Below, piece by piece: positions 501 through 23,444 of a stretch of DNA of 25,867 nucleotides (its first letter is position 1; each line of letters begins with the position of its first letter). The stretch is from contig CAJNUA010000035.1 of the NCBI GenBank assembly GCA_905330235.1, forward strand, positions 212,831 to 238,697, read 5' to 3'. The position numbers and the translations under genes were made by a program. The stretch is from Rotaria sp. Taxonomy: Eukaryota. The notes beneath the pieces were generated by a model that worked only from the letters and a program-made list of their open reading frames with translations, was not told the origin of the DNA and made no database searches.

Positions 501-2111
501 CATACCCCTGTTAAAGTGGCTTACTTTCACTGTAAACTTTAATACTTTATTAAAGTGTTTTTAAAGTTAATGCATCACTCCTAATTCGTATTTGTTTTTA
601 TACCATCAACCATTATGTTGACATTTGGATATGCAACTGTACAAAATGTGAGAAAATTACTTTGTCCAATTGTATCGACGATTGGTTCACATAGAACAGG
701 AATGACAATGAAAAAGATTGACCGATAATTGATTCAAATGTCAATTGTTCAAATTATTCTATTAACGCTACTCAACATCTAATTGACTGTTTAACGTCTC
801 TACTTGACCTCGGCATTAAATGTTCAAAAAAGTTTATTAAGATCTACAATCGAAAATTTTTGTTTTCAGCTATTTTACCTTCTGAGCTTTATGATTTTTG
901 GAATGCCATTTTATATTTACACGTTAATCGGAACAGTTTTTAGAAATGATTGTATGAATTGAGTTCGATCCGTTTATCGAAAAGTGAAAATTGCAGCATT
1001 TTAAACATTAAAGAGTGATTGTATTCATAATTCTTTTGTGAAACACGCTCGTTAATAAATGTGGAAGTGTATATAGCAAGAGTCTTCGTTGGCGATTCAA
1101 TCATCTACAGTGTGTTTCACATTATAATCCCGCGTGAATTGCGCTGAAAACTTTTTCACTATAGTCATTACTGTAAGTGTGATGTGAAAGTTGGTCTTGT
1201 TACTAAATCTTGTAAACTTTAATTGATAAAAATTCCATCAAAGAAAAATAAACATACAATCTTCTGTTATTGTACTTAGTGTTCTACACTTCTAAAATCT
1301 GAACGAGCGTTCAACATTTTATAAGTTATTATTAGTGATTGTATAACGTAAGATTCCTATTGTAAGGGCATATGAAAGCATACGAATATCTTACTATAGG
1401 GTGTACAGTATGACTTTTTTTTCTCCTTTTACACCCAAACCCGTACTCACACCCATTTGTAGAAGCAAAGAAATCGGCTTCTTTTTATGCTAGTATTGGT
1501 CGAGAGATCAACTCAAAAATGATGTGAATGTTATCGAAAAATAAATCACATTCACACCCTCGAATAGTGAATAGACTTATGGTTTAATCAAGAAAAAACT
1601 AGCTTTTTCTGTCATGTTCTCCTGCTTATGCTAAAGAATGAAATACACAATCTATTTTTATAAATACTGCCTAATGACCTAATGTTATATTGATAAACAC
1701 GAAGTATTCGAATCAGTACTTTTGACTTGTAGAAAAAGAACAAAAGCCTTAAAAAAATGTACACATTCACGCAACACAAACTCGAAATGCCCTTTGCTCA
1801 ATTCATTATACAGAATGAAGAATATTACATGTAAATAAGCAACTGACAAAATAAAATATGCCATCATACAAAAACTAATTCATAGCAGCAATCGAAATCC
1901 CTGGGACATCTTTATTATGCTCGATACAACTTTATTCTTGTGTTGAGTGTGCGGTAAAGTCTTGTAATCTGTATTTCAGTAATAGTAATAATCGAGAATA
2001 GCGTTAATGATTTTGATCAAAATCTCTTTATTTTAGGTGAAGAATAAATAATGTTGAAAAGTTTCACGATTAGAATAATAAAAAAGAATAAATGTCGTTC
2101 GGAATCATTTC

Positions 2112-2239
2112 TTAATTATTGCCACGGTCGGCACCGATAAGAATACGCCGAATAAACATGTTCCACGATGGAACGTTCAGTTCTAATTGTCTACAATATA
2201 TACTATTACGTTGGCATGCTAATTGATAGAATTTGATCG
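2112..2239 (-). CDS. VWA5A: VWA5A-like C-terminal domain protein, putative terminal exon (…AIKFYQLACQRNSIYCRQLELNVPSWNMFIRRILIGADRGNN*); TAA stop at 2112-2114
   Basis: This is the only acceptor I found (gacaaag|CG at 2240/2239) that keeps phase 1 from the upstream exon and gives an open frame to the TAA. Its pyrimidine tract is weak. An alternative acceptor, gctaag|GTT at 2291, is phase 0 and does not fit the upstream exon. Weak similarity to the VWA5A C-terminus (KAAITFLK…). Confidence 0.3.
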
Positions 2240-2354
2240 CTTTGTCAATTTGTTCGCTCATGTTAGTAGGTAAATAGTTGCAAAGACGAACCTTAGCAAG
2301 AGATAGACATTAGAGTAGGGTAAATGAAAAGATTGAACAAAAAAGAACGACTCA

Positions 2355-2483
2355 CTTTGATTTGTTCACTGTTAAATAAAAAGTCGAACGTATTTTGTTG
2401 TGAAGCTTCCGTTTGAAGAACGAGCCAAAGGAGAATGACACCCGTACCAATCAAACACAGAATGTCGTTACGTATGTTTACAG
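2355..2483 (-). CDS. VWA5A: VWA5A-like C-terminal domain protein, internal exon (AVNIRNDILCLIGTGVILLWLVLQTEASQQNTFDFLFNSEQIK)
   Basis: Acceptor ttgttag|CT ends at 2484 and the consensus donor AAAG|gtgagt is at 2354-2353. The exon enters and leaves in phase 1. The frame matches ORF 2293..2490. I remember it as similar to the VWA5A C-terminus (…WATILAVIWL…EWELLERK…). Confidence 0.65.
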
Positions 2484-2539
2484 CTAACAAAATTAAAGCT
2501 CGTGTCTTTGTACGTTTACAAGAAATTATTCGATCTTAC

Positions 2540-2648
2540 CGAGTGAATTAAAACCTTGTTCGTATAAATAGCGTTCAAGGCCATTGAAAGTATCAAGATT
2601 GATGTGAAGTACATCAGCTAAATCTTTATTCAACGTAAATGAGCCGTC
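2540..2648 (-). CDS. VWA5A: VWA5A-like C-terminal domain protein, internal exon (DGSFTLNKDLADVLHINLDTFNGLERYLYEQGFNSLG)
   Basis: Acceptor atctag|GAC and donor CTCG|gtaaga at 2539-2534. It enters in phase 0 and leaves in phase 1. The peptide aligns to the VWA5A motif NANGSWDLNEDLAKILGMSLEEI. Confidence 0.7.
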
Positions 2649-2708
2649 CTAGATTCGAATCGAATGAAAAAACAATAAATAACTAATGAAGTTTCGTTAT
2701 GATTCTAC

Positions 2709-2810
2709 CTGGGATTGAAGTTTAATAAGTTCTTCAATCATTGTTTTTGTTGATCGAATATCTTTCAGTTTACTGAGAAGTGGAGCATCAACATTTTGAC
2801 CTGAATTCAT
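2709..2810 (-). CDS. VWA5A: VWA5A-like C-terminal domain protein, first or internal exon (MNSGQNVDAPLLSKLKDIRSTKTMIEELIKLQSQ)
   Basis: ATG at 2810-2808 with an in-frame TAA three codons upstream; donor CAG|gtagaa at 2708. An in-frame phase-1 acceptor tcag|GT also exists at 2801/2800, so the exon could instead be internal (2709..2800) and spliced to upstream exons. Aligns to VWA5A …ENHLVQLIYHQNANGS…. Confidence 0.6.
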
Positions 2811-3050
2811 ATAGAGTTACTATTGCAGTATATCTCACAAACCATAACAAGAGATAAATTACCGAATGAGGTAATAAAGTCACTGCAAAAGTTGTGTGTT
2901 AAATTTTCAGTTTGACCATCAAGCTGACAAAGGACAAAAAATGAACAATCGAACTATGAGAAGACAATATAATACGAACCATATACAATGCATCACTAGG
3001 CGTGCGATCATAAACTACAAAATAAAAACAATTAAATATCATTTACCCTT

Positions 3051-3133
3051 TTAACACTGACTAGATTTAGCTGCAAAATCTGCATCGCTCTCTACATTTT
3101 GAATATGCCGTTCAATTTCATCTTTTGTGAATC
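3051..3133 (-). CDS. Hsp70-family (divergent/degenerate) gene, last exon (RFTKDEIERHIQNVESDADFAAKSSQC*)
   Basis: Acceptor tatttag|GA ends at 3134 and the TAA stop is at 3051-3053. Aligns to the Hsp70 motif GRLSKEEIERMV at the end of SBD-beta. The protein stops where the alpha-helical lid would begin. Confidence 0.7.
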
Positions 3134-3191
3134 CTAAATACATTTCAATGGTATATAATTACGATATCAAACATCGAAGTAATTATCGTAC

Positions 3192-3363
3192 TTTTCTGAT
3201 TACTGGGATCAATAGTACATGAAGCTTTGGCACCAGAACGTGCTTCCTCGGCGTCGACACGAAGTATACCGTTGGCATCGATATCCATGCAAATAGAAAT
3301 TTCGAGAGTCTGAGCAGCAAAATTGCTTGTTAGGCCAGAAAGACTGAACTCGCCCAAAAATTT
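3192..3363 (-). CDS. Hsp70-family gene, exon 5 ([57 protein letters not shown])
   Basis: Acceptor ctattatag|AAA and donor AAAA|gtacg. The match to Hsp70 SBD-beta ([36 protein letters not shown]…ITITNDKG) is unambiguous. Same frame as ORF 3145..3357. Confidence 0.85.
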
Positions 3364-3416
3364 CTATAATAGGGAAAGCTATCAAATAACATTTATATAT
3401 GTAGAACACTACACAC

Positions 3417-3663
3417 ATTGTATTTTGTCAGCCTATGTTCGCCTTCAAATATGCGAATGGTAGCTGTTTTCTGATAGGCATAAGCATTTGTGAATAATGG
3501 GCAAAGTTGAGATTTTGTTGGAATGGTTGTATTACGACGAATGAGTGTATGCATGCAACCATGAATATCTTCAATACCTAGGCCAAGTGGGCAGACACCA
3601 AAGAGCAGTAGATCGCAGAAAGATATATCAGACATTGGAATATCTCTCATTCTTGATTCAGAG
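3417..3663 (-). CDS. Hsp70-family gene, exon 4 (…[43 protein letters not shown]…[14 protein letters not shown])
   Basis: Donor AAT|gtgtgt at 3416. The acceptor is either aatttag|C (exon starts 3663) or caag|A (starts 3651). Matches Hsp70 [34 protein letters not shown]…VYEGERAMTKDN. Same frame as ORF 3393..3650. Confidence 0.8.
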
Positions 3664-3763
3664 CTAAATTTTTAGTTTATTCTTATTTGAAAAGTGATAT
3701 CAATATAGAATGATGATTAGTAATTAATCGTCGCATGCCTGTATCAAATCTTTCACAACTTAC

Positions 3764-4036: not shown

Positions 4037-4093
4037 CTATGTACATTTTTCGTTCTCCAAAATTATCTAGGAATTAATATGATTTTAACTTAC

Positions 4094-4358
4094 CCATACT
4101 AATGGTCGACATACGTTGTGGTGCTGCAGGAGCCTGCATATAACTGCTACTATCTTGTGATCCAAACGACGCCATATCTGTTGACAGTGATATTGTTGAG
4201 CGTGATGTTGGTGGTGGCGGTGGTGGCGGTGGTGGGGGAGGAGCAGTAAAACCAAATAGAGAATTATTAGCAGTATAGGTATAGGAATTGTATCGTGATG
4301 ACAAGTCAACACCTAGAACGAACATAAACTTAGAAGGTAACACACCTGACATGTACAA
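4094..4358 (-). CDS. Hsp70-family gene, exon 1 (MYMSGVLPSKFMFVLGVDLSSRYNSYTYTANNSLFGFTAPPPPPPPPPPPTSRS…MSTISMG)
   Basis: ATG at 4358 and donor ATGG|gtaagt at 4093. GVDLSSRYNSYTY weakly resembles the Hsp70 phosphate-1 motif GIDLGTTYSCVGV. An 11-residue poly-Pro run is encoded by (GGN)n at about 4205-4245. Same frame as ORF 4074..4358. Confidence 0.5.
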
Positions 4359-7632: not shown

Positions 7633-9450
7633 CTAAGCATAAGAAGAAATTGAAATTTGATTGAAATTCGTATCAGCTACATATTGATAGCTTAAAAAGT
7701 AGGACGAAGGGCATTTTTTTTCTGGTCAAATTAGGCCTTTCTAATTTCCGAAAGAAACCAATGAATCCTAACAGGAATAATTAATGCAAACGACCATTCA
7801 GTTGAGAAAGACGTTCACTTAATTCTACGACAAGTCAAAATTGAAGTCTTGCTGTGGGGATTTTGAATGATTCTTTGTGTTTATTGACGTAATACAGTCA
7901 TTTCAAATTAGAATATTAGTGATTAGTTTTCGAATACATGAACAACTAAGCAACTATAGAGTTGACATTTTACTATTAGAAAGAGTAAATACTGGAACAT
8001 ATATTTATGAGATACGTTCATATTTCAGAAATTTCCACAAGCTCGATAACTACGCAACAGCCTATACCAAAAGTTTTGAGAAATATTGAAAATTTCAGAA
8101 ATTTTCTTTTTTTTGGGAGTTTAACAATTGATAAAATTTTGACCGTCTGTTCAGTTATACACACATCTGAATGCGATCAAACTGTTTTATTCACAATAAA
8201 ATCTGATGGATCTTCATGGGTACTTACAAGACGAAAAACCTCATATTTGTCAAAGACATGCCTATGCATGTATGAGCAACGAAAATTATGACTTGACATA
8301 AATGTGTGTCATGCTGATTGGTCACCGCACATTCGTATAAGAAAACGACGACAATATCCTTATTTACCGGAATGAATCTTATATAATTTAAACCTTCATT
8401 CTTGAATTTTTTTTCTCAATATAAAAAATGCAGATTTATAGCTACCCTAGTTGTTGACGCAGTTAATAATAAGATACTCCTATTTTACTTTAACATTAGG
8501 ATGACATTAGATGTTCTCGTTTACAAGATACTGAACAATATAGAAACTAATTCTTGTGCATCAGCAAAATATTCAACTGATGTTGTGTCCACTATCCAAA
8601 ACATTTTGCACATTTATTCACAACAGGAAATGTACAGCAATTGAAAAGAGCTTTCCTGATGTTCAAAATCTCAAGATCTGTATTAGTAAGCAATACATTA
8701 GTTGTGTTCAAGATCTGTCAAAGATTATTGTATTTTTTTTACAAATGCTCAAAATATCATCTTTGACTAACATTAGGATTTAGTAATGAGTTGACGAATA
8801 TCATTTCTAAAGTAAAACTCTTGCAGAATTCAAGTAATACTCAAAAAAGAAAATATTCAAAATAGCTTCCATCAGTTGATGTTAAAAATAATCCTTACAA
8901 TGTAAGAATAAGCGCATTTGATAGCAAAGAAGCATATCTATAAAGTTAATCTCATATATGACCTATTGCTGTTTGTGACATTATGTCAAAATAGTACAAG
9001 TATAGAAATATTGAAAAAAATGTAAGACAATTAGGAACTCTTGATTGTATAATAATAACCTCTTATTTTCAAAAGGACTAAATATAACTCGAATCTAGTC
9101 AAAATTGGGAATCAACATAAACATTAATAGGTCAAAATTCAGATCTTATATTCACCCGTCTTACTACCGATGTGAGCAATGGTAGAAAGCGATGTTGCAG
9201 GTATAGAACTTCGTTTTGATGACTTCTTTTCCCTTGATATGGAACTTAGCGGTGATTTACCAAGTGTCAACCTAATAGAATAAGTCGATGACTACATGAT
9301 ATATCAGAATCTTGAAAATACGAACTTTGGCGTCTTAGTAACAGATTTTTGTTGTTGTTGAATTAATTCTCGTGGCAGCCTTGGTAACGATGATGGCGGT
9401 AATTCTATAAGGTATATAATAAAATGAAGTTGATACTAATAAAAATCTTA

Positions 9451-9551
9451 CTTGTAGTCATACGTTTCTTGGCTTCTATCTCTATTCTATTAGCAGTAGA
9501 CATTGGGATTTCTTTGGCTTCGCGTTTCAAAACCAACCGAAGAAGGCTCAT
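9451..9551 (-). CDS. Candidate 5' coding exon (MSLLRLVLKREAKEIPMSTANRIEIEAKKRMTT)
   Basis: ATG at 9551 with an in-frame TAG just upstream. A 33-codon open frame ends at the strong donor ACAAG|gtaagat in phase 2. No homology. Not phase-compatible with the Q/P exon at 7632 unless unseen exons intervene. Confidence 0.2.
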
Positions 9552-11795
9552 ATGTGTACGTGAACCGCAGAAAAGCTAAATCACCCTTGAGACCACTACT
9601 AATGTCATACTCCTCGATATCTCATGCATCAGCTTTTTCATATGCCTCTAATGGCTTCTAGATTCAATTTATTTATTTTCGATGGTAGCTTTACCGGGCG
9701 TATTGCTACAAATAATCTTCAGCAGTAGCTATAAGATGCTACCAACTATAGAAATGAATCTCCAATTTGTACTAGCCAAATACGATTCGCATATAGAATA
9801 ACCATTTTGTTGTATATATTTTCTTTGGTTAGGAAAGGTTTGTTTTTATGATCATTTTCACTTATAAGTGCGTTGTTGTAACTTATTTTCGAATTCAAAT
9901 AATATTTAAGAACACTGGAATCTGTTGTCTAAATTTCCTTACACGCGTATTTATAATTGACAACAGAACATTGTAACCTAATAAATGATCTACAGTATGA
10001 GACTACTTTTAGTTGATAGATTGTAGTGAGAGGTCAACAAATTTTAGTAAATTGAGTAGACCGATAGAAAATATGAATGTTTATGAAAACGTCTCATTTT
10101 TTCGGTTGAAACTACGAGATAATCGTTTGGTTTAGCTTGGATTTTCCTAGATAGCAGTGAGCTAAATATGACTTTAGTCAAACAGGTAAACTTGTCGTTT
10201 AGAAACAGATAATCTAATTGTCACTTATTACTCCTCGTTGGTCACTGAAGTTTCAGCGGAAGGCTGAGCGATGTTCTATGCTAGTTTATGAAGAAAAGCA
10301 TTTATTAAGTAGTGAACTTAATTCTTCATGCGAATTTCACCATAATTTACGAAGAAGCTTTTCTAACTGATATTCTTCGTTTGATCTCATATTTTTTCAT
10401 AATTGAAGTTCACAGTTTATACGAAAACGATAAAAGAATGTGTACTATTAGACGTTTCTTCTCGAATTAAAAATATTTTACTGAATTTTCAGCCTATTGT
10501 GGAGTATTAGAAGAAAAGTCGAATCAAAGAATTTCAATCTAAAATTTGAGCCACAAATTGATCTTACGGTCTTTTAATATTCTAGAAATTTTAGTCCAAA
10601 TGAACGCTTCTTTTCCCAAATATCAGACTTGGACAAAAGCTTCTTTTTCATAAAAGACTCGAAAAAGTTCGATTTTTCTCGTAATATTTTGCAATCGACT
10701 GAAATTCAGTAAAATGATCTTAGCTCGAGAAAAACTGCTTAATAACCTAAGTCTTTTGAGAGTTTTCATATACACTATTAGTCCTAAATAATGAGAAAAC
10801 TATAAGCTTGGGTGAATGATATCAGTTGCACAAGTTTCGTCTTTAGCAAATAATAAGTTCGAAGACATAAAATCGGCCATATAGTTATTATTGGTAGAAA
10901 GTACCAGAAATGACACAGTATCATACACATATTTTTTTTTAATAAATATAATCGCATTCAAAGCGAAAGAAATATTTATCGTCAATAACAGATATTTGAT
11001 GATGATAATACGACTTAAGGGGAAAAAAGCATCTTTATCTACATTTTCCAAATACAAACGACCAGAAGAGTGTATTTTAATCTAATCAACACTCCCAATA
11101 ACGAGAAACGAAGTAGAACTTTTCAAGTCGTTCCAACTTCTCCTTGATAGACATATTTTTAAGAGGCTGGTACGCTATTCATGTGGTTATTTTATCTGTA
11201 AGTCTTTTGGAACAGATAGGAGAATTAAGTTAAAGGGTTCAAAAATCAGGGTATCGTAGTTGCAATCAGAATAGCAAACGCATTAGTTATGTAAAGATTT
11301 GTTCATTGAAATCGGTTATGCATCTTATAAAGGCTTCGAATAGATCATATTAAATATCATAGATTAAGATTAAGCTTGTTTATGCCACAACTCACCAAAA
11401 AAACACTAAAAATATTATCAATGTCATTTCAGTGGCTCCTAGGCATAAAATTATTTTATTGATCAATAGGAATTTCACAACGATACAAATACCTAATACT
11501 ATGTCATACATAAATATTCTAAAACTTCATAAGAATAACTGCTCGATACATTTTTCTTCATCTTTTAACAGAAGTACAAGTAATTAATATTTACTATTTA
11601 TTTCAAAGCAGTGGCAAATGTATTAAACTAAAGATAATGTCACGAAGAGCTTCTCTTCATATCTTTCACGCTATTCGAATAATAGTATATATCGGAATTT
11701 GAGAATATAGTTTTGAAATTAATTCCAACAAATTCAATTTTATTAAACTTTTCTTTCAATGTTCAATATTAAATAATAAAAATTGCATAACTTAC

Positions 11796-11927
11796 CAGAT
11801 GTTGAATGATAGGAGGTTTCCATCACATCGTTGATAAAGTCGTAATCGAACTCACCACCATCATCATCTAATTCTTTCGATTCTGAACGTACGTGCAACA
11901 GACGTTTTATCGGTGTTGCTTGTCTCG
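11796..11927 (-). CDS. Acidic cassette-type exon, copy 1 (132 nt, phase 1-1: RQATPIKRLLHVRSESKELDDDGGEFDYDFINDVMETSYHSTSG)
   Basis: Acceptor tttacctttag|CG and donor TCTG|gtaagt. Only one frame is open. Paralogous to the exons ending at 15157 and 18485, with shared flanks (aattgcataacttaccagatg). Confidence 0.55.
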
Positions 11928-12024
11928 CTAAAGGTAAACACAGACTCCAAGTATTGAACATTTCCATCCCAGAGTATTAAACAATATTCTCAGTTAAACC
12001 GTCTTAAAATGAGTTGTTTATCGT

Positions 12025-15000
12025 GCTGTAAGTATTTTTTCGGTTAAGTTAAATATGAACTAAATCAAGAAGTTTTCCCATTCGATTTATCATGCTAGCT
12101 CAGAGAGCTAGTTTTGAAAAAGAAATCCTGTCACTAAAGTCAATTTTTCTTTTCAAGAGAAAAAGAATTATTTTCTATCCAGAAATGTACTGAAGTCTCT
12201 TATTTTCGTACACGCATATCGAGTATTTTTAATAATTTAAGTTAATTTTTTTAGTTAGCTTATTTTGTTTTTAAATAAATGCGGTCGTTTTCTAGAAGAC
12301 TTTCAGTTTCTCGTTAAAGATAATTTTGAATGAAGTTCAGCTTTTTTTCCAAAATGTTACTAGCACTGCTCTATAGGTTGATAATTACAGCAACATACAT
12401 TGTTCCTTGAATACAATTCAAAGATAAATAAAGTTTTTCTTTATTAGTGCTTTCCGCAATTGCTCATTTGAAGAATGTCATAGGTTCTTCGACGTTTCCT
12501 ACCTCACTTTTTTGTTCTTCTTTTCACTCACTAAAAGCGAGAACTTTCGTCTCGTCATAATTTGTCAGCTTGATTTCCGTACCAAGGACAAGCAAAACTA
12601 TTTAACAATGTCGTCCGTTGTAGTGTTTCTTCAAACTTAAAACTTGTCATCAGTATAAAAACATGTTAAAGTAAAAATGGAAATTCTGTAGGAATGCAAG
12701 AATGACCTCTTCAGTTTAATATTATCCTTAATTGTATATATTTCGTAGAGAAAAATTTACTTGATTTTAGTGGAGATGTTTTGTGCATTTTGAAACCAAC
12801 AATAAGCCGACAATGACTTAATATGAACATTTCCAAGACTCTTTTACTAAGGGAGGCGAATCCTTACTGAAATTGATGTTTCCAGAACTGATGGAAATAA
12901 TCAAAAATGTTTGAGCTTTTTTTGCTATACAATCTTTCTCTCTCGGATGACTTCTAACAACTACGAAATACACGCCAATATCGATTCAATAACGTGCTAG
13001 CCGTAAAGAAACGAGATATTTCTGCAATTGTGAACTGTGACCACCTTATACATTCCAATAGTACTTATAAACTTATTGTCGCATATATTCATTTCTCGAT
13101 TTTCATTCGTTTGCTCCGTACAGCTAAAGTAGCATCAGCAAACCGTGAATGTTTCCAAAATGAATTCAGGTATCAGAATTCTTTTACAAAAAATCGCTTA
13201 AAAACGAAAAAGTGTACATAATACCTTCGAAATTCGTGCATCTCATACGCTTGTCAGAACACTACAACATGTCCAGTTCGAACTTTAAGAATGTATTTGC
13301 ATCTAGATTTACATATTGATAGTTCTGAACGGATCGATTACAACCAGCGTTGTTACCTATTCTGCTTTTTTTATTTGTTCTGAGCGTTTAGATTTCATTG
13401 CTTTTATAATTTTTAGCAATACTGTTAGATTCTACTAACTCATCTGCTCGAAAATGTCGGAATAATTCCTATTAATATTGAAATATGTTATATCTTTATT
13501 TGTCTCAAGGAATGAGTTGAACTAGTAATGCTGCTTAAACTCTGAAAATCGCATTTCATTGATTGATTTATTTCTGGTTTACCTCAACGTTCCAGCATTC
13601 GACCAGATACTCTGAAAAGACAACAGATATATAGCGCTTACTAATCAAAAATAGTTCGATTTCATTCATATGAAATAGTTTTCAAAGAGCTGTGTTTTTC
13701 AGATATTCTAATTTCGTATGAATCTCTTGTTTGTCCTATAATTTCATAAATTTTCTTTTACACATTCTAAATGAGATTGATTGGGTTTAACCGATGATGT
13801 GATCACTACCAAGACTACTGCTAAATTAACTACATCTACCTAGGTGATATTTTCATATCATTACTGATCGTTGAGTAAAAATCCCAACCCTCTTTTTGTT
13901 TATGTCTAAATATATTATAATGAAAAAACTTAATGTTAGAAATTGAGATTTAGTCATTGAGAATATATTTTGGTATCAATAAATACTTGAAGAAAGATTA
14001 TTAATTAAAACATGCTTCCTGCCTGGTAAAAGTAGAATTTCAAATTTTTTCTATTTTTTCCAAGTCATTCTCATCTTTTTGACACTAAAATTTGCAACAC
14101 TATTTTCGACTAAAGAGCTAGTCTTATCATGTCTCATGAAGCTCATCAACAACATCGTTAGTACGGGTATGCATGGGGAATACAAATTGAGATTAGTCAC
14201 AGGACCGAACTTTTTTTAGACAAATGCTAGACATATGGAACTGTATTTTACTTACTTGGGTAAATATTAAAAAAATTGTTGAAATTTTTCGAATACTTGT
14301 ACAGAAGAAGTTATAGTCATATATGTACGTATGTGATCGATGAGTGTCATTCATATGAATGTGATGCATTCAATTTTCTGTATAAAAAACACGCACGATC
14401 AGACATTGATTTTCGCACAATTATTGGGGTTCAAACCTTTTGTGTGATCGTGCACTTTTCTTCAGTTTTCAACATGAGAAAGGATGATTAATATTTACTA
14501 TTTTCTTCAAATCGATGACAACGATTGATAGTTATGACTAATTTCACGAAAAGTTTTACTTTCTGCCTTTCTTGCCACTTGAACGATGCTAGAAATTTGA
14601 ATTCGAAAGTTTAGTTTTTAAAGCGATTTAAACGAATCCAATTTTATTCAAAAGCGAACAATGTGATTTCTATGCTAGAAATCATTATAATGCGTCAAAC
14701 ATACGAATAATTACACCATGTGGTTAAAAATGATCCAAAAACCGTGAGGAGCCATGAGAACTCAATGAATACCTCCAGTAATATGATTAAGAGTAGAGAA
14801 TTGATTTCTAATGATTTCTTGTGATTTTCTTTCAATTCTAAGCATTTCCAATAACTCTCATTGTGTCGTGGTGAACTAATAAAAAACTGATTTTGGGTAA
14901 TAGAAATCACGAGAAATCAGAAACATTATTAGAAATCGAAGAAACCATGAAATAAGTTTATACGCGTTTCGTTTTATCAAACTTTTCTTGTGATAATCAC

Positions 15001-15230
15001 TACTAATAATGAAAGTTGCGTTACATACCAGATACTGAATCAGAAGACACTTCCAAAAGTTCGTCGGAGTAGACATCCATATCATCATCTTCGCTGTCTT
15101 CATCATCTAATTCTAAAAGTTGTTCTAATGAATGCTTTGTTGCTGCAGGTTTCTTGTCTAAAAGCAAACGCAGATATTTTTTCGCTTCAACGACATTGTA
15201 TTATCTTAATCACTATGAAATAAATATTAC
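12025..15230. repeat. Tandem segmental duplication, copy A (about 3.2 kb; includes acidic exon copy 2)
   Basis: Long stretches are roughly 85-90% identical to 16205-18560, for example 12418-12510 with 16570-16700 and 12990-13330 with 17102-17440. The plus-strand ORFs 12994..13221 and 17106..17399 are paralogous. Copy A has extra segments at about 13426-13800 and 14520-14990 that copy B lacks. Confidence 0.8.
15029..15157 (-). CDS. Acidic cassette-type exon, copy 2 (129 nt, phase 1-1: KKPAATKHSLEQLLELDDEDSEDDDMDVYSDELLEVSSDSVSG)
   Basis: Acceptor gcttttag|AC and donor TCTG|gtatgt. Only one frame is open. Confidence 0.55.
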
Positions 15231-16204
15231 AGCGAATATTTATCACTACAGTTGTAAATACAAAGATTATTGGTTTTAGATACGATTCTTATATATGGAT
15301 ATGTCGTTCAAGAAAAATAATTCCAGTTATCATTTTCCAAGCACCACTGATGCAAAAGAACGATGGTTTAAATAAATAACTAAGATGCTCGAAACTCAAA
15401 CCTTTCAAAACATCTGATATTTTTACAATTTATAAATCATTGGATAGAAATGAACGACTTGTTTCGAGATATCAGTGTTGTAGCCATGATAGTGAACACA
15501 GAGAGTAAAACGCATAGAGAATATTGAGTATTGAAAAATTGAGTACTTTTTTAAATGATGCTAAGAGAATTAACCTCCTTAATTTATATACTCTCTAAAA
15601 AATTCGACTAGAATATTCATTAGTTAGCATGAAAAATCAAATATACAAAAAAAAACACACTTTTTATATTGTTGACACATAACTTTCTTCAAAACTATGT
15701 TGACCAAGAGAAGCGAATAAAGTTTGGACGGGTTTCACTTAAGAAAACAATATTTTAGGTTAAGAGGAATCATTTTTCATTTTATTTCTTAATTTTCGAA
15801 GAAAAAATGACTTTTGTTTTCAATACCATCAACAAAATTTTTAAAGAATGATCTTCTCTTTGTAGAATTTTCACAAGAATTTGTTTCGAAATAAAATGAA
15901 TAAGATATTCAAAATTTGCGTAGAAAGCCACATGAAACAGCATGTTGTTTTATTGCAGGCATGTTTTTTATGATTTATGTACTTCGTAAATTTATTCTGC
16001 ATATTGTATTCGTTTTATTTGGACACAAATTCCTAATGAAAAAAGTCTCTAAGTTGAGAGACTTTTTAAAGAATTTTATTACTGATGTTGAAAAAAGTGG
16101 ATTTCTTAGCGAAAAGTTAGAATAAATACAAACACATATTTCACATCATTTTCAACTGACTCAAAGCTAAACTAAAGTATAACAATGTGCCACACTTCTT
16201 AACT

Positions 16205-18560
16205 TAGAAAGTTAGATATTTTTTCGACTAAGTTACATATGCACAATATCAAGACGAAGTTTTTCCATTCGATTTATCATGTGATCTCGAGACGTTTTTT
16301 ATGTAAAAAGAAGTGAAGAAAGTCATTTACAAAATTTGATTTTCTTTTCTATGACGAATATTAGTTGTTCTCTATAAAGAACTGCACTGAAGTTACCTCT
16401 TTCAAAATACTTATATCATCTATTTCTATTGATTTAAATCGTCTTTTTGTAGGCAGCCTGCTAATTTTTTAATATTTATAGCCATTTTCTGGAAGACTAT
16501 CAAGCTTTTGTTCAAGATGATCTTGAACGAAGCTCAGTCTTTTTTCAAACTATTGAATAGTGTTCCTGAAATACAATTAAGAGATAAATAAAGTTTTTCT
16601 TTATTAGTGCTTTCAGCAATTGTTGCTTAAAAATTCATTTGAATCTCTTTTTATAGAAACATAAGTTTTCGTTTGAAGAATGTCATAGGTTCTTCGAGGT
16701 TTCATACTACAGTTAACTATGTCATCCGTTGGAGCGTTTCTTCAAACTTAAAACTTGTCATCAGTATAAGAACATGTTAAAATAAAAATGAAAATTCTGT
16801 AGGAATGCAAGAATGACCTCTTCAGTTTAATATTATCCTTAATTGTATATATTTCGTAGAGAAAAATTTACTTGATTTTAGAGGAGATGTTTTGTGCATT
16901 TTGAAGCCAACGATAAGTCGACAATGACTTAATATGAACCTTTCCAAGATTCTTTTACCAAAGAAGGCGAATCCTTACTGAAATCACTTTTTCGAGAACT
17001 TGTGCAAATAATCAAGAATTTCTGAGCTTTTCTTTGCTAAACAATCTTTCTCTCTCGGATGACTCATAACAAGTACGAAATACACGCCAATATCGATTCA
17101 ATAATGTGCTAGCCCTAAAGAAACGAGATATTGGTGAAGTTGTGAACTGTGACCACCTTATACATTCCAATAGTACTTATAAACTTATTGTCGCATATAT
17201 TCATTTCTTGATTTTCATTTGTTTGCTCCGTACAGCTAAAGTAGCATCAACAAATCGTGAATGTTTCCAAAATGAATTCAGCTATCAGAATTCTTTAAAA
17301 AAATCGCTTATACACGAAAAAAGAGTATGTAATACCCTCGAGTTTCATGCATCTCATACAGCTGTCAGAACACTACAACATGTCCAGTCCGAACTTTGAG
17401 AATGTATTTGCGTCTAGATTTACATATTGATAGTCCTGAATGGATCGATTACAACCAGCGTTGTCACCTATTCTGCTTTTTTTATTTGTTCTGAGCGTTT
17501 AGATTTCACTGCTTTTATAATTTTTAGCAATACTGTTAGATTCTACGTACTGCTAAATTAACTACATCTACCTAGGTGATATTTTCATATCATTGCTGAT
17601 CTTTGAGTAAAAATCCCAACTCTCTTTTTGTTTATGTCTAAATACATTATAATAGGAAAACTCAATGTTAGTAATTGAGATTTAGTCATTGAGAGTATCT
17701 TTTATTACCAATAAATACTTGAAGAAAGATTATTAATTAAAATATGCTTCCTGCTTGGTGAAAATAAAATTTCAAAAGTTTTCTATTTTTTCCAAGTCAT
17801 TCTCATCTTTTTGACACTAAAATTTGCAACACTATTTTCGACTAAAGAGCTAGTCTTATCATGTCTCATGAAGCTCATCAACAATATCGTTAGTACGGAT
17901 ATGCATGGGGAATACAAATTGGGATTATTCATGGTATCGAACTTTTTTTAGACAAATGCTAGACATCTGGAACCGTTTTTTACTTGTTTGGGTAAATGTT
18001 AAAAAAAATTGTTGAAATTTTTCGAATATTTGTACAGGAGAAACTAGGGCCATATATATATGATATATGAGTCTCATTCATATGAATGAGATACATTCAA
18101 TTTTCTTTTAAAAGAACATGCATGGTCAGATATTGATTTTCTCACAATTATTGAAGTCCAAAACTTGTGTGTGATCGTGCGTTTTTCTTTAGTTTTCAAA
18201 ATGAGAAAGGATTTATCATACGTCAAGAATAAGAATATTTACTCTAAGCAGTTAAAAACTGTAGAATACTCTCAGAAGTTAGTAAAACTCATTAAATATG
18301 TTTGATTTTATCAAAATCAGCTCGTGATGTTTGCTACCGATAATAAAAGTTGCATAACTTACCAGATGCCGAATAGAAGGAAGTGGCTATGTTAATATCG
18401 TCCCAGTCGAAACCCACATTAACGTCTTCAATATGTGATTCTAACTGTTGTTGTAATAAGCTCTCTTCTGAATCAAGTTCCTCGTCTAAAAACAAACACA
18501 GATAAGTTTTTTCTCTTCAACGTTATTGTATTCTCTCATTCACGGGCATTGGTATGGATG
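16205..18560. repeat. Tandem segmental duplication, copy B (about 2.35 kb; includes acidic exon copy 3)
   Basis: See copy A. An approximately 1 kb unique spacer (15230-16205) separates the two copies. Confidence 0.8.
18363..18485 (-). CDS. Acidic cassette-type exon, copy 3 (123 nt, phase 1-1: EELDSEESLLQQQLESHIEDVNVGFDWDDINIATSFYSASG)
   Basis: Acceptor ttgtttttag|AC and donor TCTG|gtaagt. Only one frame is open. Confidence 0.55.
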
Positions 18561-20345: not shown

Positions 20346-20368
20346 CATCATAGTCGGCGAATAGTTGA
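20346..20368 (-). CDS. VWA5A: VWA5A-like gene, 23-nt micro-exon (CQLFADYD), or the start of a terminal exon 20311..20368 ending …DGKKSRKWNSII*
   Basis: Acceptor ctcttgtag|T supplies the third nucleotide of the phase-2 codon left by exon F. Downstream there is both a donor GATG|gtaaga in phase 1 and an in-frame TAA at 20311-20313 if the donor is ignored. Confidence 0.35.
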
Positions 20369-20427: not shown

Positions 20428-20524
20428 CATTCGTCACTTGTAATCATCAAATTGTTAGCTTCACATTGTTGTTGTAGTGCTTGCTGTTTTTCTGCCGTTG
20501 CACTAATAATTTCGATCTCTATAT
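20428..20524 (-). CDS. VWA5A: VWA5A-like gene, exon F (DIEIEIISATAEKQQALQQQCEANNLMITSDE)
   Basis: Acceptor aaataaatag|AT fits phase 1 from exon E. Donor GAATG|gtatgt leaves phase 2. Confidence 0.5.
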
Positions 20525-20582
20525 CTATTTATTTTTTGAATATTAATGTATTTGAATATCTATTCTAGATTAACTAACATAC

Positions 20583-20891
20583 CATTTTTCATTTTATCTT
20601 CGAGTTCATTTGCTTTTTCGTGCTCGTTCAATGAATAACGATACGTATGAATAATAGCCATCATCGTATCAAATTTTGCATCACCACCAGCTTGATAGGA
20701 AATTTTTTCACAAAGTTTTTCAACATCAGCAACTGATTCGTTTTTGCTTTGAATCGATGCACTTTCGAGTGAAATACGTGCATCAATCAATTTTTGTTTC
20801 ATCGAAGCTAAATTTGATACATCACCATCCCATCCGATGTATGGTAACAGGTCAACATCTCGATCAAGCATAACATCAAGCAGACGAACAC
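20583..20891 (-). CDS. VWA5A: VWA5A-like gene, exon E (GVRLLDVMLDRDVDLLPYIGWDGDVSNLASMKQKLIDARISLESASIQSKNESVADVEKLCEKISYQAGGDAKFDTMMAIIHTYRYSLNEHEKANELEDKMKN)
   Basis: Acceptor tttctgttatag|GT and donor AATG|gtatgt. Frame matches ORF 20560..20871. Confidence 0.8.
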
Positions 20892-21185
20892 CTATAACAG
20901 AAAGTACATAATGTAGATATTCTCATTAATAATATGAATTAGAAAAAAAATCAACTTATTGAAGTAAGGTATAAAGATAAAATGATCATCATTTAGACAA
21001 AACTGAAATACAACTTGAATACAGGCACTTCAGTTATGACGGTATCAACATTTTTGACCTTCGTATCCAGCTCTAGACATTTAGCTCATTGTATAAGAAG
21101 CATGTAGATAAATTTTTCCTTTTTGTACTGTTGTGTTACTAATCAATTATTAAGACTATCTATACAATTTTAGATTTCTACTAAC

Positions 21186-21960
21186 CTGGTTGAAGTGTTC
21201 GTGCAACTGTTTTAGTATGACGTTCTTCGATGGCAACAAAACTAGTGTATTCACTGACAACAGAATGTTTGATGCTTAGATCGATAAGATCTCGTTTACA
21301 GTGAACTTTGATCAATTCATTTTCGCTCTCGTCCACATGCAATAATCCATTTTCATAATCGTCAATTATCGCTCGAGCAGTTAGACAATGTAGAATACGT
21401 CCTCGGGTTGTTGTCATAGTACTGCTAAATACAGTTGTAACAAATTCTTGTCCATCGATAGTAGCCGTCAATATTGCCTTATGGCAGTTTTGTATGAATC
21501 GATAGACACTAATTCGCATACCGTTGAACAAGGATCGAATCATTTTCGGTGCTTGCATATTGAATTTTTGTTCTTCATCTAAATGACCATGCCAATCGAT
21601 TGATATACTTGTAATACACGGTTGTCGAATATGTTCGAGAATGTTCAATACTTTCGTTTTCCATTTTGATCGATAGTTCGAATCGAATATTGTTGCTAGA
21701 CCACCTCCACTTGCTCCACGAGCTAATTGTTTTAAAGCATGCTTGTCAGCAACATTACCTATTGCACATGTAAATAGACGATCACGACACATAATCGATT
21801 GATGTTCGAGTAGTGTAAGAATTGATTTGAAATCATGGATATGTCCATCGGATAGAAGAATGAATTGCCGACCAAATTTCGACGATATTGATGATGGTAA
21901 AAGTGAATAACGTTGTAGAACAGAAAATAGATCGGTGTTACCGCGATGGACAAGTGAATG
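21186..21960 (-). CDS. VWA5A: VWA5A-like gene, exon D (second half of the vWFA domain plus the conserved middle region: HSLVHRGNTDLFSVLQRY…ARGASGGGLATIF…SEYTSFVAIEERHTKTVARTLQP)
   Basis: Acceptor catattctag|CAT and donor CCAG|gttagt. Frame matches ORF 21181..21792. Aligns with VWA5A GGTEILAPLQNIY…IARASGGTSEFI…SSFTAFIAINKELNKPVQGP. Confidence 0.9.
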
Positions 21961-22023
21961 CTAGAATATGTCAAATGTATAGATTTCAGTGGGAAAAAAT
22001 CATGCTCAAAGCAAATTACTAAC

Positions 22024-22097
22024 CAGAACAAAATGTTTGGCTTTGTCAAGATTCTCTTTTGTGGTTGGTGTTGAAATTGGAAAACATTCATCATTAT
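22024..22097 (-). CDS. VWA5A: VWA5A-like gene, exon C (DNDECFPISTPTTKENLDKAKHFVL)
   Basis: Acceptor ctatttag|AT and donor CTG|gttagt. Aligns with VWA5A SSYEACFPESVKYTQQTMEEALGRVKLM. Confidence 0.8.
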
Positions 22098-22152
22098 CTA
22101 AATAGTTCAAATTTGAACAGTAGAATAACACTACTGACGATCATCTTATTAC

Positions 22153-23026
22153 CTGATCCGAAAGCAACTATATTGAAAATTGTATTTCCATCGTTAACTT
22201 TTAAATTCATAAGAAATAAATGAGCTAATTGTTTAGCTTGTTGTACATGACTGCCATCCATCGAATTGGATGCATCGATAATAAAAATAATTTCAACTCG
22301 TTCGCTCGAATTCGTTAACGTTTCAAATCGCGGATAAAAAGTAAGCATGCATACTTGAGAATTATGATTGTTCGATGTTGTTATTTCGTCGTCATCATCC
22401 AATGACAATGTTTCATTTGATATTCGAGGTAAATTAGCACTTTTGAGTGTGATTGAAAGAATAAAATCTCGATCAAGTAAGATATTATCGACAAGTTCGA
22501 CCATGGCAATACAATCAGTTAATTTTCGACGAAGACGATGTGTCGGCGAAAATAGTTTGGTTATTTCGTAAGGCATTCGAATTGATGCTTTGAAACTGAA
22601 TTCAACTTTTTCATCAACAATACCAATAGATCTTACAATCGATTGATCTTTAGTTTCAACTGCTTGTTTCGATTGCCATGAAGCCATTTTAGCTGGAAGA
22701 CGAAAGATGATATCTCCATTTTCGATTTCTAATTCAGCAACATAGGTTATTTTGATGATGACTTCATTGTTCGCTGGTAAATTACCAACAGCTACGCTAA
22801 ATACTTGAGCTTGTTCTTTGTGCATCAAATAGGCACCATGACTCTTTTCGATTGCTTCTCGATATTCTTGTTTGGCTTGTTCTTTTTCTTTGACGACACC
22901 TGTAATAACTTTATTGTTGATATGTGCTTCGAAACCGCACACGGTCGAATTTTCATCAAGAGGAAATACATATTTGGCTTCGATGGGTGTCGAACTCGTA
23001 TTGTGATAGACTTGATACAGAACAAC
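22153..23026 (-). CDS. VWA5A: VWA5A-like gene, exon B: VIT domain (…EAKYVFPLDENSTVCGFEAHINNKVITGVVKEK…), acidic linker (LSLDDDDEITTSNN), and the first half of vWFA with the MIDAS motif DASNSMDGS
   Basis: The acceptor …ttcaacaaaaaaaag|GTT follows a poly-A run with a pyrimidine tract just upstream. Donor TCAG|gtaataag. Frame matches ORF 22094..22942. Aligns with VWA5A FFVFPMDEDSAVYSFEALVDGKKIVAELQDKMKA…FIIDRSGSM. Confidence 0.9.
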
Positions 23027-23234: not shown

Positions 23235-23293
23235 CTGGAAAATAAGAGGTAATCTAATCAAAATTTATTCTAATAACAAATACTCATTATTAC

Positions 23294-23444
23294 CATGTTC
23301 GCTCAATTTTAATGCATTTTGCTTATGATGAACAATTGGTAATCGTTCTAATTCGATATTAAGCGTATCATGTGGTACCCATGAAACTTCCAAAATATAC
23401 AGTAAACGTTGTTGATTGAGTTGATAGATTGCATATTCATTATC
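23294..23444 (-). CDS. VWA5A: VWA5A-like gene, N-terminal extension exon (DNEYAIYQLNQQRLLYILEVSWVPHDTLNIELERLPIVHHKQNALKLSEH)
   Basis: Acceptor tatcgaaatag|GAT and donor CATG|gtaata. The phase-1 end matches exon A. There is no in-frame ATG, so a further upstream exon is needed. Confidence 0.55.

Follow-up and report, generated by a model that had tools for sequence, protein, structure and literature searches.

Probable tandem duplication of a fast-evolving acidic exon beside an apparently homogenised intron in a Rotaria PARP4-like gene

The window analysed here is a stretch of 25,867 nucleotides (nt) from the bdelloid rotifer Rotaria sp. (assembly GCA_905330235.1, contig CAJNUA010000035.1, positions 212,831 to 238,697). 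On its minus strand it carries a PARP4-like gene and, 3' of the domains recognised in that gene, three candidate exons encoding acidic peptides, which we call E3, E2 and E1 in gene order. These exons are probably tandem paralogues of a single fast-evolving linker exon of symmetric phase, and would be the product of ordinary tandem exon duplication beside an intron that was homogenised. A sequence-only reading of the window had held that the exons are more diverged than their own introns. This contrast was confirmed for the ~50 nt that border the splice sites and for an intron tract of ~2 kb, but not for the unconverted intron (67–70% identity). It is misleading because the ~2-kb tract seems to have been homogenised recently and is not a neutral yardstick. 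We attribute the contrast mainly to this homogenisation, and in small part to retention of sequence next to the splice sites.

Acidic exons and the surrounding introns

E3 (18363..18485, minus strand; 123 nt; peptide EELDSEESLLQQQLESHIEDVNVGFDWDDINIATSFYSAS) is followed by E2 (15029..15157, minus strand; 129 nt; peptide KKPAATKHSLEQLLELDDEDSEDDDMDVYSDELLEVSSDSVS) and E1 (11796..11927, minus strand; 132 nt; peptide RQATPIKRLLHVRSESKELDDDGGEFDYDFINDVMETSYHSTS). All three enter and leave in phase 1. Each is preceded by a pyrimidine-rich tract and ...tttag and followed by gtaagt or gtatgt, the borders of E3 being AG/GTAAGT, and in each the phase-1 frame is the only open one, with 2–5 stops in every other frame. 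The exons are spaced at 3233 and 3334 nt. The lengths, phases and ~3.3 kb spacing that had been read from the letters alone were thus borne out.

The encoded peptides are acidic (net charge −5 to −12 over 40–43 residues), rich in Ser and Thr, and end in S-x-S-(G). Formal alignment of the exon pairs yielded nucleotide identities of 57–63% over the longer length, or 59–68% over aligned columns, against a shuffle null of 50–52%, in agreement with an earlier estimate of 55–60%. In the shuffle comparison the E2-E3 exon identity corresponded to z=4 and that of the flanks to z=3–6. Amino-acid identity among the copies was 20–35%. A peptide profile, whose training set included the same sequences that it matched, found exactly three matches in the window as well as homologs in relatives (E=1e-16 to 1e-21). 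The copies are therefore homologous to each other, lie on the same strand in the same phase (1-1) and have comparable lengths, as expected of a tandem exon array.

For comparison, the locus was obtained from nine further sources besides the window (loci are referred to below by L numbers). An orthologous array was found in Rotaria sordida, whose locus was obtained three times in addition: L013 and L014 gave identical matches, and a third version, L015, is 99.9% identical to L013 and uninformative for the ratio of nonsynonymous to synonymous change (dN/dS, omega) on a short timescale. The R. sordida locus and the window align collinearly at 65–74% identity, long introns included. Three acidic exons, all of phase 1-1, lie 3' of the annotated gene end: X1 (22450-22584), X2 (25815-25943) and X3 (26583-26711; coordinates of L013). 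The best match of E3 was X1, with which it shares 44% of its amino acids and 76% of its nucleotides. The ortholog of E2 is X2 (50% amino-acid identity). E1 has the position and the 3' flank of X3 (flank 79%), and a body closer to X2 (49% vs 14% amino-acid identity). It may be a later X2-type duplicate that was joined to the X3 flank by exon fusion or conversion. The window yielded no exon of the ancestral '...SYL-x-F' type, to which X3 and the exons of L002, L007, L008 and L010 belong. Because the three-exon array of R. sordida is orthologous, the three-exon state appears to predate the split of the two species.

Among relatives more distant than R. sordida, the peptide profile detected exactly one homologous exon in each of L002/L003, L008, L007, L004 and L010, a weaker one in L005, and none in L001 or L006. 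In the compact gene of L002 the exon measures 123 nt, has phase 1-1 and belongs to an in-frame chain of five GT-AG exons with introns of 50–60 nt, which is the best sequence-level evidence that this exon type is genuine. L002 and L008 share 84% identity in the exon and 65% in the flank; for L002 and L007 the values are 69% and 74%. In single-copy lineages the exon thus appears to behave as an ordinary fast linker. A scan of metagenomes with the donor-flank motif returned one true relative with a single exon (L010) and two chance matches (L011, L012).

The claim of conserved splice-flank sequence held in part. The donor-flank motif TTATGCAACTTTTATTAT occurred three times at no more than three mismatches, compared with 0.22 occurrences expected by chance, but the acceptor-flank motif was matched by E2 and E3 only, the E1 version having diverged. 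The 50 nt of intron adjoining the exons were 58–88% identical, with the highest values on the acceptor side of E2 and E3. At 51–100 nt from the exons identity was 40–60%, which is the shuffle level and no better than the exons themselves. The 80–85% previously proposed for the immediate flanks is therefore reached at some sites and does not describe the whole range.

The conserved donor-side flanks lie on the minus strand at 18303..18362 for E3 (gtaagttatgcaacttttattat...), 14969..15028 for E2 and 11736..11795 for E1. They are 70–75% identical among the three window copies and 74–81% identical to the single-copy relatives L007 and L010. In all three copies, ~57 nt past the donor align with the whole 56-nt intron of L002, and the same stretch aligns with the start of the longer L007 and L010 introns. 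On the strength of these alignments the conserved flank appears to be the remnant of an ancestral short intron of 56 nt. RNAalifold detected no consensus RNA structure in the donor flank across seven sequences.

An intron of 56–66 nt ending in TTTTTTTAG comes after the acidic exon in L002 (11702-11757) and L008. At the homologous position, the three window flanks, L007 and L010 read TTTGATAAAA, so the old acceptor has been lost there and the intron now extends over hundreds to thousands of nt.

Self-comparison of the window revealed one repeat unit in ~2.1 copies, arranged in gene orientation as E3-a3-core2-b2-upstream flank, then E2-a2-core1-b1, then E1-a1. Core copy 2 occupies 16561..18212 in the E3-to-E2 intron, and core copy 1 occupies 12401..14485 in the E2-to-E1 intron, including a 380-nt indel at 13436-13815. 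Beside them lie the paralogous old intron zones b2 (16217..16560) and b1 (12033..12400); b1 escaped conversion and is 67–69% identical to b2 and 74% to its R. sordida ortholog. The upstream intron of E2 (15214..16216) appears to be ancestral sequence rather than an insertion and is homologous to R. sordida L013 24722-25342 and 21887-22196 (66–69%). Zone a1 (11549..11735), 3' of E1, ends the repeat array and is 72–73% identical to the R. sordida sequence 3' of X3.

Two segments of the core were 92% (12602-13435 vs 16713-17546) and 89% identical (13816-14485 vs 17548-18212), which supports the 85–90% that had been claimed for the duplicated non-coding DNA. The corresponding values were 67% for zone b (12033-12462 vs 16217-16622), 68.5% for zone a (11549-11747 vs 14453-14651) and 70% for an exon with its flanks (14966-15213 vs 18300-18543). 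In a sliding profile, identity was 84–98% per 100 nt within the core and 59–77% outside it, with abrupt transitions. The two cores are 92% identical in their interior and 84–87% at their ends (Kimura two-parameter distance 0.07–0.09), and their sharp edges lie 150–1400 nt away from the exons. Compared zone by zone, the exons (57–68%) indeed fall below the core, but they are about equal to unconverted intron: the remaining homologous intron zones (67–70%) are close to the exons (59–68%) and to neutral 4-fold sites (67–71%).

R. sordida has a single copy of the core (L013 22786-24112), which is 60–71% identical to both window cores. Zones b1 and b2 are 69% identical to each other vs 71–74% to the R. 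sordida b zone, and are thus no closer to each other. The window cores are closer to each other (92% in the interior, 84–87% at the ends) than to their ortholog (67–71% in this comparison), and the flanking paralogous DNA is not. Neither inverted nor direct repeats were found at the ends of the core tract, and it contains no transposase-like or constrained long open reading frame (ORF), no Rfam match and no tRNA. Between the ORF copies in the two cores the differences are mostly replacements, and no copy of the tract was detected in the other loci fetched. Because the single R. sordida copy is only 60–71% identical to both window cores, the core appears to be ancestral intron sequence that evolved at an ordinary rate and was recently homogenised in the window lineage. 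To judge from the pattern of identity, the process was most likely non-allelic gene conversion between the two paralogous introns.

The 380-nt segment at 13436-13815 is present in core 1 and absent from core 2. It has TAC microhomology at its junctions (..TCTAC/TAAC.. and ..AGAC/TACTG..) and looks like a microhomology-mediated deletion in core 2. Both cores also contain a near-perfect palindrome of 30 nt, ATGAGTCTCATTCATATGAATGAGATACAT, at 14340-14369 and 18067-18096.

The PARP4-like host gene

The VIT, vWA and post-vWA coding exons of the host gene lie at 20563..22942 on the minus strand, with Pfam matches to VIT and VWA. The ORFs of this interval are 85% identical at the amino-acid level to a poly[ADP-ribose] polymerase of R. 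sordida (P0046; UniProt A0A814LML6; 1438 residues), and also 85% identical to exon-sized Rotaria fragments labelled poly[ADP-ribose] polymerase. P0046 comprises PARP_reg, PARP catalytic, VIT and vWA domains, and through this collinear ortholog the order PARP-VIT-vWA can be assigned to the window, in which a PARP-proximal peptide lies at 23265-23393. The VIT and VWA matches of the window and its 85% identity to P0046 indicate that the host is a PARP4-like (PARP-VIT-vWA) gene of a bdelloid rotifer.

A 97-nt exon (20428..20524, minus strand, phase 1 to phase 2) encodes ..EIISATAEKQQALQQQCEANNLMITSDE and matches P0046 residues ...SATTEELQALQQRCQSNNLRITSDEE. A 23-nt mini-exon (20346..20368, minus strand, phase 2 to phase 1) precedes E3 and is homologous to the mini-exon of L007 and L002. 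Read from the sequence, the GT-AG chain 3' of the vWA exons is consistent throughout (...EDKMKN/G, then AT..SDE/TG, then T..ADYD/G leading to AC-GAG-GAA of E3). The frame of the mini-exon, whose end is in phase 1, continues into E3 (...QLFADYD-D-EELDSEES...), as would be expected if the acidic exons belong to the surrounding minus-strand gene, which is where the sequence-only reading had placed them. Neither the acidic peptide nor the region after the vWA domain had a Pfam match.

The C-terminus of P0046, ...LRITSDEE-YVKEKDGNI (L013 20250-20290), corresponds to read-through of the donor after ...SDEE. The R. sordida model thus probably lacks its true 3' end.

Rates of evolution and alternative explanations

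We compared rates between the window and R. sordida, using the proportion of synonymous differences (pS) in the VIT/vWA exons as the neutral reference. In these reference exons pS was 0.35, the proportion of nonsynonymous differences (pN) 0.065 and omega 0.14, with a dS of 0.48 and 71% identity at 4-fold sites. For E3-X1, pS was 0.48, pN 0.40 and omega 0.74. E2-X2 gave a pS of 0.61, a pN of 0.28 and an omega of 0.27 (synonymous vs nonsynonymous, p=0.003). With E1 the outcome depended on its partner: paired with X3, pS was 0.47, pN 0.48 and omega 1.04 (pN vs reference pS, p=0.03), and paired with X2, pS was 0.63, pN 0.34 and omega 0.33 (synonymous vs nonsynonymous, p=0.01). The dN/dS between the related species thus ranged from 0.27 to 1.04, and no value was significantly above 1.

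Pooled over the three positional pairs, pN was 0.39, a value far above the reference pN (p<1e-8) but not significantly different from the reference pS (p=0.33). The acidic exons therefore changed their amino acids at about the silent-site rate, ~6 times faster than the VIT/vWA part, in line with the relaxed constraint that had been suggested for them. At least the E2/X2 lineage seems to have remained under residual purifying selection. None of the six copies in the two species has lost its splice sites, its length of 3n or its single open frame. When neutral substitution was simulated to 20–40% divergence, the frame stayed open in ~9–23% of trials per exon.

We consider it rather likely that these observations reflect tandem duplication of one linker exon. 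A single ancestral exon of phase 1-1 would have encoded an acidic, Ser-rich segment in the C-terminal extension of a PARP4-like protein; judging by its composition, this segment is probably a disordered linker. The increase to three copies would have come about through unequal recombination of a unit made up of exon and intron, no later than the split from R. sordida. If the peptide was constrained only in composition, frame, a short aromatic/acidic patch and the Ser-rich C-terminal end, its sequence would thus drift about neutrally, with the splice signals and ~50 nt of the ancestral short intron retained. Much later, a tract of 1.7–2.1 kb inside the two long window introns would have been homogenised to 92% identity, which would make the exons look hyper-diverged. 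We infer that E1-E3 are spliced into the mRNA, either serially or as optional cassettes.

Several observations weigh against this explanation. The next conserved block beyond E1 (~9400-9650) has indels of 31 and 12 nt relative to R. sordida, and no phase-compatible acceptor for an exon after E1 was found in it. The R. sordida model P0046 stops before the array, leaving X1-X3 unannotated, and neither the concatenated E3-E2-E1 peptide nor the spliced L002 peptide had a match among 5.8 billion proteins. The pN of E1-X3 is above the neutral reference, and drift fits this pair only if E1 is an X2-type copy. Finally, R. sordida has no second a-core-b unit, and the age of the duplication is based on identity differences that are not statistically significant.

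Part of this evidence would also suit alternatively used cassettes under diversifying (positive) selection, in which conversion was kept out of the exons and isoform diversity resulted. In favour of this hypothesis, the exon bodies lie at or slightly below unconverted intron (E1-E2, 75/128, 59%, vs zone b, 129/187, 69%), the donor flanks (74–83%) score somewhat above 4-fold sites (67–71%), and E1-X3 shows its nominal excess. The symmetric phase and 3n lengths permit any exon combination, and the conversion tract ends short of all exons. However, the divergence is not specific to coding sequence, as it runs hundreds of nt into the non-coding flanks with many indels; omega was never significantly above 1, the pooled pN equals the neutral reference, and the sole nominal excess over neutrality hangs on a doubtful orthology, given the 49% amino-acid identity of E1 to X2. 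We therefore regard diversifying selection as unlikely; with unconverted intron at 67–70% and exons at 59–68%, the suggestion that it explains exons evolving faster than their introns was not upheld. A fuller version, with optional cassettes whose acidic/aromatic peptide is driven apart by selection, window copies diverging faster than the slower X2, and conversion selectively excluded from the exons, seems to us decidedly unlikely. If it were true, an asexual, stress-tolerant animal would have isoforms that differ, in a lineage-specific way, in the tail of its PARP4-like protein, which is possibly fused to an Hsp70-like domain.

The near-neutral rate, the lack of annotation in R. sordida, the lack of a protein-database match and the failure to place a phase-compatible junction after E1 would equally be expected if the copies were dead or dying pseudo-exons in a long intron or intergenic spacer, with open frames as leftovers. 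We give this hypothesis a small probability. All six copies keep AG/GT, a polypyrimidine tract, a 3n length and an open frame, which neutral simulation preserved in only ~9–23% of trials per exon, and pS exceeds pN in both E2-X2 and E1-X2. Moreover, the frame continues in from the upstream exon, and the single-copy homologs sit within compact in-frame exon chains. As to the introns, the 92% tracts might have arisen without conversion, from a mobile element that inserted independently in each intron or from an intron segment that was recently copied and pasted; high identity, sharp edges, the single copy in R. sordida and the lack of a detectable tract in the other loci all fit such an origin. 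Yet in each of the two introns the tract lies in line with old paralogous a and b zones, and it is collinear with one R. sordida intron segment at neutral-level identity, which points to ancestral intron. It also has no terminal repeats, transposase-like ORF or RNA family, and a non-homologous copy-paste would have had to hit the precise place between zones a and b by coincidence. An insertion or copy-paste origin is thus quite improbable.

Any combination of E1-E3 preserves the reading frame. This bears on the proposal that the array is a mutually exclusive cluster with exactly one copy per transcript. Homologous exons of similar length and identical phase do occur in known clusters of this kind, and tandem duplication can create competing RNA structures (PMC6071210). 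In our case, however, the frame is kept with any number of copies and the introns of ~3.2 kb impose no steric block to joint inclusion. No docking site complementary to the shared flank motifs was found, a duplex scan of 11.6 kb of pre-mRNA with each of the six flanks gave best energies within the range of shuffled flanks, and the flanks have no consensus structure. Mutually exclusive use, which the sequence-only reading had considered, is therefore highly improbable.

That reading had also raised a tandem family of secreted-peptide genes. The open frames of E1-E3 are bounded by splice sites, and no ATG-initiated ORF of at least 70 residues covers E2 or E3 in the coding frame; E1 alone has an in-frame upstream ATG, by chance. 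We rejected this candidate: the units have in common neither a start codon nor a signal peptide nor a stop codon, and their homologs are internal exons.

Neighbouring features and known systems

Hsp70-like exons lie on the same strand, 3' of the PARP4-like gene (2045-3704, minus strand; Pfam HSP70 substrate-binding region, profile positions 382-503). The order of a PARP4-like followed by an Hsp70-like part was also found in L001, L002/L003, L006 and L008, and in compact loci the two parts are separated by only ~1 kb of packed same-strand exons. The PARP-VIT-vWA part and the Hsp70-like part may form one gene. At 4074-4358 on the minus strand there are overlapping low-complexity ORFs, including a run of 11 prolines, and one of these ORFs shows weak similarity (41% over 44 residues) to an L002 exon rich in Pro and Ser. 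This interval probably represents one more rapidly evolving coding exon, situated between the acidic exons and the Hsp70-like part. In L001, calmodulin-like EF-hand segments (...FRAFDKDGTGSISAAELR; ~11550-12300) lie between the vWA-proximal and the Hsp70-like exons, the place of the acidic exon in other loci. L004 contains a Tc5/pogo-like transposase (1516-2866; HTH_Tnp_Tc5, DDE_1) 5' of the PARP4-like gene.

A long inverted repeat was found 3' of E1 (10340-10850; arms 10351-10523 and 10668-10841), which folds into a hairpin of ~500 nt (minimum free energy −127.6 kcal/mol; z=-6.1 vs shuffles). At the corresponding place of R. sordida (L013 27596-28024) this region is likewise present in the two orientations, so the inverted arrangement is conserved between the species; either a foldback element or a hairpin RNA is conceivable. 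Two overlapping, weak Rfam matches resembling microRNA precursors at 430-513 (MIR1523, mir-988; E=0.3–0.6) were far below the gathering scores and are probably due to chance.

Tandem duplication of exons within genes was reportedly described by Letunic, Copley and Bork in 2002, and is reviewed in 'Tandem Exon Duplications Expanding the Alternative Splicing Repertoire' (PMC9013439). The array in the window resembles such cases in that homologous exons, alike in phase and length, stand next to each other and were copied together with flanking intron, and in a symmetric phase that keeps the frame. In contrast to typical annotated duplicates, its copies share only 20–35% amino-acid identity, which fits a low-complexity linker and not a folded module. 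Mutually exclusive clusters with docking/selector RNA structures, such as those of Dscam and 14-3-3zeta, are treated in PMC6071210 and PMC1431710. Like these clusters, the array combines paralogous exons with conserved intronic sequence beside each copy; unlike them, it has no docking complement, structure or frame incompatibility, and the conserved flank appears to be a linear remnant of a 56-nt intron.

The host gene and its R. sordida ortholog appear to share the order of PARP_reg, PARP catalytic, VIT and vWA with PARP4, the vault poly(ADP-ribose) polymerase. They differ from it in that the region after the vWA domain matches no known domain and holds the acidic array, followed by the Hsp70-like exons on the same strand.

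Gene conversion is reported as a feature of bdelloid genomes (PMC5916493, PMC8494291). The intron core resembles concerted evolution by non-allelic conversion, with paralogues at 92% vs 60–71% to the ortholog, sharp edges, and old flanking paralogous DNA (67–70%). It is unusual in that the converted tract is purely intronic and the exons are untouched. The arrays of secreted salivary gland protein (SSGP) genes in the Hessian fly, which have conserved non-coding and diversified coding DNA, served as a lead only. The likeness, with coding DNA more diverged than non-coding DNA in tandem units, is superficial: the units described here are not genes but internal exons, which lack start and stop codons as well as a signal peptide, and the similarity of the non-coding DNA stems from recent homogenisation of a tract, not from conservation over the long term.

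Our findings leave the current understanding of exon duplication unchanged. They remove an apparent anomaly, since the intron yardstick for the rate of the exons was itself a young homogenised tract. For the PARP4-like gene of Rotaria, they add three unannotated candidate coding exons and probably a longer C-terminal tail, and their value here is that of a gene-model correction. For bdelloids, the locus would provide a small, clean example in which a linker exon drifts near-neutrally with its frame kept, together with patchy homogenisation of paralogous introns.

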